From Candidatus Electrothrix sp. GW3-4 (GTDB taxonomy: Bacteria; Desulfobacterota; Desulfobulbia; Desulfobulbales; Desulfobulbaceae), in contig NZ_CP147990.1 of assembly GCF_037902255.1 (NCBI RefSeq), forward strand, positions 720,001 to 752,000: a stretch of DNA of 32,000 nucleotides, in the 5' to 3' direction. The position numbers and the translations under genes were made by a program. The first letter of the stretch is position 1; each line of letters opens with the position of its first letter. Shown piece after piece: positions 21,687 to 24,525 of the stretch. Under the pieces are notes generated by a model, which was not told the DNA's origin, searched no databases, and was given only the letters and a program-made list of their open reading frames with translations.

Positions 21687-22346
21687 CTAAAAGCAACATT
21701 CTTCGTAAAAAGTATATTTCTGCCAGTGTGAAACCAAGAAGCCGAGGTAACGTTTATATTCAGGCGAGCTCCTTCTTCTGTGGCAGTCATTGAGTTTCTT
21801 GAGCCATTTTTCATTGGCATAGAGTTTTTTCCACTCCATGCCAATCCCATGCAGATTGAGATAGATCTCAAGGAGAAAGCGACCTATCCTGCCGTTGGCA
21901 TCATAAAACGGGTGGATCTGGACAAAATGCTGATAAAATTTGACGGCCTGATACACGGGCACCTCTGTTCGGGGGATGAGATGGGATATCGCACCCTGCA
22001 CCTCAGCCTTAATGCCTCCTGGTGGAGTGCCCTGAAATTGCTGGCGCGATCCAAAGAGAACAAGGCCATTATTAGGGTCCTGACTCTGGCGATAGGATCC
22101 TGCGTTGGCAAAGATGTCCTCAAAGAGGTAGTAATGGAGAATACAGGGGAGCTGGACAAAGAGTCGTTGGTATTCCTCTGAATGGAGCTGCCTGAGTCTG
22201 GGGATAAAGCTCTCTGTATTTAATTTGTCAAAGCGGGCGTGAACGGTCCGGAGAGCGATATCAAGTGCTGGAGGGCTAGCCACCGGGAAGTCCTCCATAA
22301 GCTCGCGAAAATGGGCCCGATCGTGAGAGTCGCTCCGGTGATGCAA
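21687..22346 (-). CDS. Fic/Doc-family protein (putative toxin)
   Basis: The core motif is HPFYDANGRIGR, a variant of HxFx(D/E)GNGRxxR. The upstream element is IFANAGSYR. The TTG start at 22346 directly abuts the stop of the upstream gene; an alternative ATG lies 16 codons in. Confidence 0.85.
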   Translation of the reverse strand: MHHRSDSHDRAHFRELMEDFPVASPPALDIALRTVHARFDKLNTESFIPRLRQLHSEEYQRLFVQLPCILHYYLFEDIFANAGSYRQSQDPNNGLVLFGSRQQFQGTPPGGIKAEVQGAISHLIPRTEVPVYQAVKFYQHFVQIHPFYDANGRIGRFLLEIYLNLHGIGMEWKKLYANEKWLKKLNDCHRRRSSPEYKRYLGFLVSHWQKYTFYEECCF

Positions 22347-22991
22347 TTAGAGCAGCTCGTCTATCTCACGCAGCAGGTTTTGAAAATCATGCTTGGCTTT
22401 CTGGCTCTGATGCTGATAATCTTCTGCGGTTGGATAGGTGGCAAAGGTTTCAGCCTCTTCTTTATCCATGTCCAAGGTGAAGGAATGCCAGGAATTGGAT
22501 TTCAGGACGTGGAAGGGCTGTTGGGCGGCATTCTGGAGTTTGAGGAAATTTTTGGCAAAGGGCTGGTTGGAATAATAGGTGAAAATTGCCGCATCGCTGA
22601 TAACTGCACTCTCTTCTGCTTCCAACCAAGGAGCCTCATTATGGGTCATTGCACTGAGGGTGAAAGCAGAATAATCGACATAATTATCTAGAATAAAAGT
22701 GAGGATTTGCCCCTGTTCCGGGCTAATGCCTGCGGGTTTTCTTCCCAGAGGGATGACATCCGCCCCGTGCTTTTTATAGGCATTATAGATAGAGGCGTTC
22801 ACTGGGCCATAGGTCCATTTTTCGAAATCGGCCTGGATAAAGGGATGATGTGCCACCAAAGTCCATGACTTGGCATAATAGGCTAGCTTTTGCAGCTTCA
22901 TCGGTGTGATGCCTTTATCCGGATATGCGGCGATGATGAACTGGGCCAGCTCTATGGCATGCAGAGGCTGGGCCTTGGGAACTTCAGTCAT
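22347..22991 (-). CDS. Panacea (DUF4065 / SocA-like) domain protein (putative antitoxin)
   Basis: The N-terminal half (PMKLQKLAYYAKSWTLVAHHPFIQADFEKWTYGPVNASIYNAY...THNEAPW) fits the DUF4065 pattern. It is followed by an acidic C-terminal extension of about 80 aa. Confidence 0.75.
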   Translation of the reverse strand: MTEVPKAQPLHAIELAQFIIAAYPDKGITPMKLQKLAYYAKSWTLVAHHPFIQADFEKWTYGPVNASIYNAYKKHGADVIPLGRKPAGISPEQGQILTFILDNYVDYSAFTLSAMTHNEAPWLEAEESAVISDAAIFTYYSNQPFAKNFLKLQNAAQQPFHVLKSNSWHSFTLDMDKEEAETFATYPTAEDYQHQSQKAKHDFQNLLREIDELL

Positions 22992-23078: not shown

Positions 23079-23107
23079 AATGTACCGTACAAAACGCTTT
23101 GTGTCAA
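23079..23107 (-). promoter_or_regulatory. Sigma70-like promoter for the Panacea-Fic operon (TTGACA-N17-TACATT)
   Basis: On the minus strand the -35 element is TTGACA (23107-23102) and the -10 element is TACATT (23084-23079), with a 17-nt spacer. It lies about 90 nt upstream of the Panacea ATG. Confidence 0.4.
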
Positions 23108-23420
23108 CGTATCTTGCCGAAGTTGGATGGAAAGTCCGTTTTTTGCCTCAGCGGAGATAGGCGCAATATTCATAAAATCTTCAGGAAAATAAGCGGATGT
23201 TCAGGTCTTATTCGTTAACTTTTTTATTCAGGTGATGGCATTGAGTTTGTTGTTGATGAGATGAAGCGGGACGGTGTGCCGTGGACACTTGTAGGCCTTG
23301 GTGGAAGCAGGAAAAAAAACGAGAATTTATCGGGGAAAAAGTACATGAGACGGTTGAGTAAACATTATTGAAATGAAAAATGGGTCATGTGCTGAGCACG
23401 CACCCGGCAAGAACTGGCCA

Positions 23421-23456
23421 TAAAAGAGGGTCGCTGGCATAAGCCTGCGGCCCTCT
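23421..23456 (-). terminator. Rho-independent terminator after the small secreted-protein gene
   Basis: A 10-bp stem (agagggtcgc 23425-23434 / gcggccctct 23447-23456, one G-U) has a 12-nt loop. On the minus strand it is followed by TTTTATGG. Confidence 0.55.
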
Positions 23457-23524
23457 TCTTTGTAGTTATCAATAGCTAAAAATTTATTGGAAAGGTGCCC
23501 TGTGATAGGGTCTATGTATGGATA

Positions 23525-23851
23525 TCACAGACTAATTATCTTAATACCATTACTGCCATCACATGCTTCAATAAAAAACTTTGCTTCAGGTGGTGAGTTG
23601 AAATTGACAGATACTTCTGGCGGGCAGCCCTGGAGCTCTTTTTTCATGAAATCGCTTGAGCTATTCTCTTCTTGAGAAGAAAATTCTACCCGAACAGACT
23701 TTATATTTCTGTTCGATTTCACTATACAGTTGGTTTCATCGAGGGCCTCGCATTGTACACTATACGCATGATCAATATAAGCACCTTGAGCACTTGCTAT
23801 GAATGGTATTGTCAAGAGTAGTCCTGTAAATAATAATATTTTTTGATTCAT
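23525..23851 (-). CDS. Small secreted protein with four cysteines, uncharacterised
   Basis: The ATG at 23851 is preceded by AAAGGAGGAG. It has a signal peptide (MNQKILLFTGLLLTIPFIASAQG). The mature part is about 85 aa with 4 Cys. The gene is AT-rich. Confidence 0.6.
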   Translation of the reverse strand: MNQKILLFTGLLLTIPFIASAQGAYIDHAYSVQCEALDETNCIVKSNRNIKSVRVEFSSQEENSSSDFMKKELQGCPPEVSVNFNSPPEAKFFIEACDGSNGIKIISL

Positions 23852-23949
23852 ATCGTTACTCCTCCTTTTATACAATCGGTAGTTAACCGAATTTGTAAGT
23901 AAACCTCATGGCTTTCTTGTAATATGAGGGTGGAATATATCTCTATTAA

Positions 23950-24144
23950 TTAATTCTCTATAGCTATAAAGTTGTCCTTTATGAGAAAAATATTCTGATC
24001 ACCCGTGAAAAGGAAAAGGATACCGGTAAGCAAAAACAATACGCTCACTAAGCACATGCACCAGGAGAACCCCTTTAAGATGAAATGCAGTGAAAGTGTA
24101 CCCTTTTCTGTAAACTTTATAACTTTTCCTTTATTGTTCAACAT
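23950..24144 (-). CDS. Small single-pass membrane protein (64 aa), uncharacterised
   Basis: The ATG at 24144 is preceded by GGAGGAG at 8-nt spacing. It has one central hydrophobic helix (FSWCMCLVSVLFLLTGILFLF). The gene is very AT-rich. Confidence 0.45.
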   Translation of the reverse strand: MLNNKGKVIKFTEKGTLSLHFILKGFSWCMCLVSVLFLLTGILFLFTGDQNIFLIKDNFIAIEN

Positions 24145-24525
24145 AAGCAGACTCCTCCATATCAGCTTATTTTTTACTTGCAATAATTATACCCGAACAA
24201 CTAAGGGTGAGTCAGTTGGTCTGTTATTTAAGGAGATATTGGTTTTTATAACAACCACATTGTGGTATATTTTTTATTGACGGTAATTAGTTAACAATCT
24301 TGAATGTCAAGAAGATCTGTATAGTTTTTTATTTGTTTTTTTTTTAAAGTTTAATTTTTATTATATAAACGCAAGCAACTCTCCAGGATATCATCAAGCT
24401 GAAGAGGGCCTCAGGTAGGTGTGCATTATGCTTGAGCTAATCAATTCGTAGGGAGGTGGCGAGGGTTTGGAGGTGTTTGGGGGGGCAGGATATGGCCGAG
24501 AGTGTACTGGTCAAAAGGTCAAAAT

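Follow-up and report, generated by a model that had tools for sequence, protein, structure and literature searches.

A stretch of 32,000 nucleotides from Candidatus Electrothrix sp. GW3-4 (contig NZ_CP147990.1, positions 720,001 to 752,000), here called the window, was found to contain a two-gene module on its reverse strand. In this module a gene for a protein with a Panacea (DUF4065) domain, here called PanA, lies directly upstream of a gene for a Fic-family protein (Table 1). The open reading frame (ORF) coordinates given in a preliminary description made from the sequence, the abutment of the PanA stop codon with the Fic start codon, and the tight coupling of the two genes were all confirmed from the sequence. 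Both domain assignments were likewise borne out with Pfam hidden Markov models (HMMs): the upstream ORF matched PF13274 (SocA_Panacea) over residues 33-122 with an E-value of 1.8e-14 (55.1 bits against a gathering threshold of 25.7), and the downstream ORF matched PF02661 over residues 69-163 with an E-value of 1.8e-12 (48.4 bits against a gathering threshold of 24).

The conservation of the pair was surveyed using a scan for HPFYDANG with one genome per species, giving 80 loci (L001-L080), and six-frame ORFs of all 80 were scored with HMMs derived from alignments of Fic and of PanA. All 59 of the loci with family-level Fic in the set L001-L059 carried a PanA of the same clade directly upstream on the same strand. 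At L060-L062 PanA was not matched by the HMM, and at L060 and L061 the Fic match starts at the contig end. The loci L063-L080 encode other Fic proteins that have the motif alone in common, and PanA was not matched there. Independent gene calls with precomputed Pfam labels agreed with the survey, giving Panacea followed by Fic in members approximately 40% identical to the PanA of the window, among them a complete Stanieria genome. The proposal that this is a two-gene Panacea-Fic module with conserved neighbours is thus upheld. The paired loci belong to at least seven phyla, and their taxa include Desulfobulbales, Chloroflexota, Bacteroidota (with Balneolales, Rhodothermales and Ignavibacteria), Chlorobiota, Calditrichota, Marinimicrobia, Cyanobacteria and others; a patchy taxonomic spread of this kind is typical of mobile toxin-antitoxin (TA) modules. 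In total 132 PanA homologues were found, with coverage of 64-100% of the query among the 120 listed, and the closest homologues were in Candidatus Electrothrix and other Desulfobulbaceae. Plasmid and phage collections yielded no close relative, identity there being at most 36% over partial lengths, and two distant matches inspected in them had different partner genes.

Table 1. Features of the Panacea-Fic module in the window. Column counts are over 88 PanA and 61 Fic sequences.
Feature	Residues	Position in window	Strand	Remarks
PanA gene	214 amino acids	22347..22991	(-)	ATG start, TAA at 22347-22349; Panacea/DUF4065, putative antitoxin
Fic gene	219 amino acids	21687..22346	(-)	TTG start at 22344-22346; putative toxin, AMP-transferase type
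Gene junction		22344..22349	(-)	PanA TAA then Fic TTG, 0 nt between, same frame
Promoter-like site		23079..23107	(-)	TTGACA, 17 nt, TACATT; 10/12 matches; ~88 nt upstream of PanA ATG
Fic active-site motif HPFYDANGRIGR	145-156	21879..21914	(-)	translation checked
Predicted flap (target-docking hairpin) GLVLFGSRQQFQG	94-106	22029..22067	(-)	AlphaFold2 (AF2) model
LNDCHRR of Fic	185-191	21774..21794	(-)	N186 61/61; C188, H189, R191 60/61
N-terminal helix of Fic	4-19	22290..22337	(-)	predicted helix; leads into D19-F20
Globular Panacea core of PanA	8-157	22521..22970	(-)	PHROG 1281 and BFVD phage models
Acidic C-terminal tail of PanA	158-214	22350..22520	(-)	clade-private; candidate neutralising module
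DMDKEEA of PanA, pattern DMxxx[ED]A		22452..22472	(-)	D174 88/88, M175 88/88, position 179 E53/D35, A180 74/88
Terminal amphipathic helix of PanA	189-213	22353..22427	(-)	weak resemblance to C-terminal part of P1 Phd

The automatic gene call of Fic (P0001, 198 amino acids) begins at residue 22. The TTG abutting the PanA stop codon is the better call: protein-level conservation of residues 5-21 is seen in all homologues that contain this segment, the AF2 model makes it a confident helix, and the junctions of the closest relatives are alike, reading TAA-TTG, TAA-GTG or TGA-TTG. Across the 59 related loci the distance from the PanA stop to the Fic start is mostly -17 to +19 nt, with 4-nt overlaps at 10 of the junctions, and TTG or GTG starts of Fic are frequent. 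This spacing and these start codons thus fit translational coupling with low toxin output, and the sequence of the abutting TAA-TTG itself suggests coupling of translation to a weak start codon. A stop-codon read-through fusion was also considered, as TAA and TTG are in frame here; it was rejected because the homologous junctions are mostly out of frame (-4, -14, -17). A promoter consensus scan gave five sites in the region compared with 2.6 expected, so that the promoter-like site upstream of PanA is weak evidence.

The AF2 model of Fic, with a predicted local distance difference test (pLDDT) score of 93.9, was matched by Foldseek to FICD, EfFic, EcFicT and NmFic, each with a probability of 1.00, as well as to BepC and CdFic. 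A profile search of PDB sequences (E <=0.01) returned 52 Fic-fold proteins, mostly named AMP-transferases, and these included CdFic, FICD, NmFic, SoFic, IbpA, VbhT and Bep proteins. The best 50 Foldseek matches were likewise proteins of the Fic fold, for the most part with AMP-transferase names. The active-site motif, HPFYDANGRIGR, differs from HxFx(D/E)GNGRxxR by one deviation, A for G at position 6. No variation was seen in its H, P, F, Y, D, N, G, R, I and R across the 61 Fic sequences, down to 32% identity, and A150 and G155 are at least 90% conserved. By signature and predicted fold the protein is classed as an AMP-transferase type Fic, and it would transfer AMP, a nucleoside monophosphate (NMP). 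In the predicted flap, GLVLFGSRQQFQG, DSSP assigned strands and a turn at residues 97-106; G94 and G99 are invariant and F98 and G106 near-invariant. The conserved LNDCHRR, nearly invariant across the family as LNxCHxR, follows the active-site helix, and its 'LN.C' is common to the C. difficile Fic 4x2c ('LNSC') in the HMM alignment.

Engel et al. are said to have divided Fic proteins in 2012 into three classes, with the inhibitory helix reportedly located in a partner protein (class I), at the N-terminus (class II) or at the C-terminus (class III). The inhibitory [ST]xxxE[GN] of classes I-III was not found as a feature of either family: three of the 61 Fic sequences and five of the 88 PanA sequences contained the canonical motif, at scattered, non-homologous positions, in agreement with the preliminary description, in which neither protein was seen to carry it. 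In canonical Fic enzymes the inhibitory glutamate pairs with the second arginine of the motif (R2), which here corresponds to R156 (PMC5033356).

It had also been proposed that the D-A-N of the motif places the enzyme between canonical Fic and Doc or AnkX. This placement did not hold, as position 8 of the motif is an invariant G and both R153 and R156 are invariant. Doc, a six-helix kinase, has the motif HxFx(D/N)(A/G)NKR, and what defines it is a change from G to K at position 8, by which ATP binding is inverted (PMC4177925). The sequence HPFYDANGR was identical in 18 unrelated Fic proteins, and 11 of the 18 carry the class II motif, as SSxIEN or TNEIEG, 131-139 residues upstream. Because so many unrelated carriers have a class II inhibitory motif, D-A-N is no sign of Doc- or AnkX-like chemistry, and its alanine is a neutral variant found in ordinary glutamate-regulated Fic proteins. 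With the Doc model TIGR01550 (DOC_P1), Fic scored 16.2 bits, below the cut-off of 38.65; the hhalign probability of the Fic family against P1 Doc was 5%; and both Doc and AnkX were absent from the 52 PDB sequence matches and from the best 50 Foldseek matches. AnkX has an extra CMP-binding domain that, together with the Fic domain, inverts CDP-choline binding (PMC4177925). An AnkX-type phosphocholine transferase was rejected as a candidate, since a protein of 219 amino acids, with no insert domain in the AF2 model, has no room for an extra CMP domain.

PanA was matched by PHROG 1281 over residues 8-157 (E 1.4e-35), and PanA-like phage models of 147-156 amino acids in BFVD aligned with it over 145-160 columns (TMt 0.69-0.75). 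The AF2 model of PanA had a pLDDT of 92.0. Invariant columns of the Panacea core fall in KLQKL, in GPVN and at F145, N148 and F149 (FAKNF). The preliminary description had noted an acidic C-terminal extension of about 80 amino acids; its acidity, conservation and restriction to the clade stood up, and its length was revised to about 57 amino acids. The larger figure was counted from the end of the Pfam match and not from that of the globular core, which is taken to run to about residue 157 because PHROG 1281 and the phage models extend that far. The 57-residue tail has an isoelectric point (pI) of 4.9 and a net charge of -5.9, and Fic has a pI of 8.8. Helices were predicted in the tail at residues 166-172, 177-182 and 189-213, with pLDDT of 76-91.

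When PanA residues 141-214 were compared by phmmer with 1.84 billion representatives, the real matches were PanA-clade proteins and fragments only. Short matches to the tail look like fragments or frameshifted PanA, and long matches with multiple stretches are low-complexity repeats or tetratricopeptide repeat proteins. The tail as a free-standing or widely shared module was rejected, there being only 19 matches among the 1.84 billion. Pfam and PDB sequence searches with PanA and its tail gave nothing for the tail besides a sub-threshold Pup-like match, in which residues 177-214 (22350-22463) matched Pfam Pup (PF05639) with an E-value of 0.004-0.085 and 14-18 bits against a cut-off of 27. This match is probably a compositional effect of the acidic, Q-rich helix.

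The Panacea domain is also the domain of SocA, and NCBIfam SocA_antitoxin matched PanA over residues 25-81 (E 1.3e-13), in line with a SocAB-like (type VI) arrangement in which PanA would be a proteolytic adaptor delivering Fic to a housekeeping protease. We consider this very improbable. The score with NF047745 was 51.1 bits, far from the equivalog cut-off of 190, the five PanA-toxin pairs tested in published work were stable as complexes and were assigned to type II (PMC8832971), and specific binding of the toxin better accounts for a tail that is both conserved and private.

The reading we favour, and hold to be moderately probable, is that the module is a chromosomal type II TA-like (PanAT) operon in which PanA holds an AMP-transferase type Fic inactive by means of its private tail. 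In this Desulfobulbaceae genome, which is cable-bacterium-like, PanA and then Fic would be expressed from one transcript, and the weak TTG abutting the PanA stop would couple Fic synthesis to antitoxin synthesis and keep it below that level. H145 would act as the base, and D149, N151, the A-N-G anion hole, R153 and R156 would hold the nucleoside triphosphate in the canonical orientation. With an essential cellular protein docked on its flap, Fic would then most likely NMPylate (AMPylate) one of that protein's hydroxyl side chains. PanA would bind Fic directly and inactivate it with the acidic 57-residue tail, not with the globular Panacea core: either D174-M175 and the acidic residue 179 would extend to the nucleotide site, or the active-site groove would be spanned by the terminal amphipathic helix. 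Loss or triggering of PanA, for instance by proteolysis or by a phage cue sensed by the Panacea core, would free Fic, and we infer that the freed enzyme would be toxic. That the tail is a non-canonical acidic plug, with D174 or the acidic residue 179 pairing with R156, is a tentative idea that we think doubtful. If true, such a plug would be a fourth way to restrain an AMPylating Fic, in which a module joined to a Panacea sensor domain would inhibit the enzyme in trans, and the Panacea core would control withdrawal of the plug, for example on phage infection.

Several observations weigh against the favoured reading. The AF2 model folds the tail with good confidence in the absence of a partner, and the tail may, on this model, simply be part of the PanA fold. 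Inter-protein covariation, calculated as mutual information with average product correction over 76 PanA-Fic pairs, gave no enrichment of the tail, which accounted for 17 of the top 100 pairs compared with 21.5 expected; the top covarying pairs are dominated by a clade marker, the group in which W168 is deleted. Likeness of the terminal helix to Phd, at Phd residues 43-62, is a faint hint from sequence alignment: against P1 Phd residues 37-65, hhalign gave an E-value of 0.069 and a probability of 0.8%, and in a shuffle test the tail HMM beat all but 18-32 of 5000 shuffled Phd sequences (p about 0.004-0.006). The surroundings of the module consist of housekeeping genes and form neither a mobile nor a defence island; its neighbours are prfA, prmC, an Atg22/MFS-type (major facilitator superfamily) transporter and an OmpA-like barrel. 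In the published screen, one Panacea-linked Fic/Doc protein, of B. adolescentis, was non-toxic in E. coli. Finally, residue 9 of Fic is acidic in 39 of 39 sequences (E in 23, D in 16), which could mean that Fic is self-inhibited and not a constitutive toxin.

This last possibility was weighed as an alternative. In it, Fic would be self-inhibited by the N-terminal helix, with residue 9 reaching R156, and PanA would be a sensor or regulator, for example the component sensing phage in an abortive-infection module by which Fic is released or activated once a trigger arrives. The helix is placed ahead of the pre-flap helices, where the class II inhibitory helix lies, and besides residue 9 it shows conservation of S7 (34/39) and L16 (40/40), followed by D19 (49/59, with E in 7 more) and F20 (58/59), so that its sequence is possibly that of a degenerate cis-inhibitory helix. 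Its S-H-[ED] does not fit [ST]xxxE[GN], and residues 1-10 of Fic average a pLDDT of only 59. In favour of this alternative, candidate defence models of PADLOC match Fic (PDC-S04, E 3.6e-12, 44.5 bits; SoFic, E 5e-10), although these matches are distant, PADLOC gives no cut-off, and the module lies outside any defence island. A sensory Panacea has been proposed for cases in which neutralisation sits in a separate element (Ernits 2023, PMC10440598). Taken as a whole, self-inhibition of Fic appears unlikely to us.

The screen result and the housekeeping context of the chromosome would also suit a Fic that is no growth-inhibiting toxin, acting instead as a regulatory enzyme that modifies either PanA or a non-essential target, or being a decaying remnant in this genome. 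To these may be added the Fic frames that are interrupted beside an intact PanA at L009 (4001-4658), L033, L038, L053 (3779-4498) and L056. TA loci typically show such decay of a toxin beside an antitoxin that is kept, both frames in the window are intact with all catalytic residues kept, and the strong conservation across phyla, with the patchy distribution already described, speaks for a mobile TA module; a non-toxic Fic is therefore, in our judgement, quite improbable. An interrupted or N-terminally truncated Fic frame beside an intact PanA was also seen at L059. At L009 and at L053 (Longimonas halophila) the conserved N-terminal peptide of Fic is in another frame than the remainder. The interrupted frames could be due to toxin decay or to errors in metagenome-assembled genomes.

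Some further features were observed at related loci and near the module. In six cyanobacterial loci (L039, L046, L048, L049, L051 and L057) PanA lacks residues 166-168, W168 included, and the Fic partners in the same loci diverge from the family profile after approximately residue 193. This is a group-level co-variation of the tail with the Fic C-terminus. In Stanieria sp. NIES-3757 (L088, 5640-7102), Fic was called at 184 amino acids, a DDE transposase lies directly downstream on the opposite strand, and a PemK-type toxin pair lies approximately 2.5 kb upstream; the locus looks like a small TA cluster. A 20-codon stretch at L009 (6190-6249), approximately 2.2 kb downstream of the module, shares 75% identity with the final 20 codons of the PanA gene in the window and may be the remnant of a second copy. 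Among related Electrothrix contigs, prmC is kept upstream in L009 and the transporter is kept downstream in L002, and at more distant loci the flanking genes are unrelated. Between the module and prmC in the window there is a low-GC stretch of approximately 0.8-1.4 kb (23600-24400), with 33-35% GC compared with approximately 50-55% around it, and it contains short ORFs only. A 116-amino-acid ORF with a hydrophobic N-terminal stretch, at 23525..23875(-), adjoins it, and no Pfam match was found for this ORF. A 20-nt inverted repeat at 23419-23462 could be the terminator of the 116-amino-acid ORF. No tRNA genes or Rfam families were found in the window.

A conserved glutamate motif is believed to hold most Fic proteins in restraint, and a family in which neither partner has that motif offers a compact test case for other restraint of Fic enzymes. 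Panacea, known to pair with many toxin folds, is here, in a lineage found in many environmental phyla, recruited to a full-size AMP-transferase type Fic, and the sole characterised Panacea-Fic/Doc pair combines a Doc-type kinase with a Phd-like C-terminal element. The practical payoff would be modest: a further validated branch in the network of PanAT systems, and perhaps a new peptide with which to inhibit Fic enzymes.

Among known systems, no solved structure other than the toxin-binding domain at the C-terminus of DarG (7YK3) resembled the PanA model at all. For PanA residues 19-74 (22770-22937) this resemblance was not significant (Foldseek 7yk3_B, E 0.5; PADLOC, E 0.013). Homology of DUF4065 to this DarG domain is asserted in a 2026 paper (PMC13621843). 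Unlike PanA, DarG of DarTG has a macrodomain, and it neutralises an ADP-ribosyltransferase.

As in the class I pairs VbhT/VbhA and EcFicT/EcFicA, the gene for a small Fic protein of AMP-transferase type lies downstream of one for a separate, putative trans inhibitor; the Fic model resembles EcFicT 5jff (Foldseek TMt 0.66-0.68), and the profile search matched VbhT. The class I antitoxins, such as EcFicA, differ in being small and in supplying [ST]xxxE[GN], whereas here the partner is a Panacea protein of 214 amino acids without the motif, and no Pfam match of PanA to a FicA/VbhA-type family was found. The DMxxx[ED]A of PanA would, from its sequence, be the nearest analogue of the class I motif and is a candidate for that role. 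The best relatives of Fic are of class II (the class of SoFic, FICD and CdFic), with E-values of 1.5e-9 for CdFic 4x2c and 1.6e-5 for FICD, and its N-terminal helix occupies the position that the inhibitory helix has in class II. In contrast to class II, this helix has S-H-[ED] only, with no [ST]xxxE[GN], and the protein has 219 amino acids, lacks extra domains and is always paired with PanA. With P1 Phd-Doc the module shares a Fido-fold toxin, an upstream antitoxin and the D-A-N, and Phd neutralises by a C-terminal helix; the hhalign probabilities of 5% (Fic-Doc) and 0.8% (PanA-Phd) set the two apart.

The closest known systems are the PanAT Fic/Doc pairs. The Panacea-Fic/Doc pairing has been published, with 32 predicted pairs and one validated (Kurata 2022, PMC8832971; Ernits 2023, PMC10440598). 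PanA proteins assemble into complexes with the toxins cognate to them (PMC8832971), and the PanA of C. doosanense neutralises its Fic/Doc toxin by C-terminal helices and not by the Panacea core (PMC10440598). The approximately 36 available rows of cluster T7 in Dataset S1 are all actinobacterial, many being a 'death-on-curing family toxin', and in this part of the dataset the taxa of the present family were not found as Fic partners. The same part lists a PanA of Longimonas halophila as 'NonConserved'. At L053, which is of that strain, a frameshift appears to break the Fic frame lying downstream of PanA, and if the PanA there is the listed one, this frameshift would explain why the pair was missed in the census. 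Like the PanAT Fic/Doc systems, the module has a PanA that lacks a DNA-binding domain at its N-terminus and is encoded directly upstream of a protein with the Fic/Doc fold, the order antitoxin then toxin, a tight junction and a C-terminal helical extension past the Panacea core. In contrast to the largely Doc-named T7 cluster, the Fic described here fails the Doc model, has G and not K at position 8, and has a full-size Fic fold; unlike the Phd-like element of the C. doosanense PanA:Doc pair, its partner's tail has no significant similarity to Phd; and unlike the actinobacterial rows of T7, the family occurs in Desulfobulbales, Chloroflexota, Bacteroidota, Cyanobacteria and others. The module is thus no new category, and is a new lineage of the published Panacea-Fic/Doc pairing with another toxin sub-type and another private tail.

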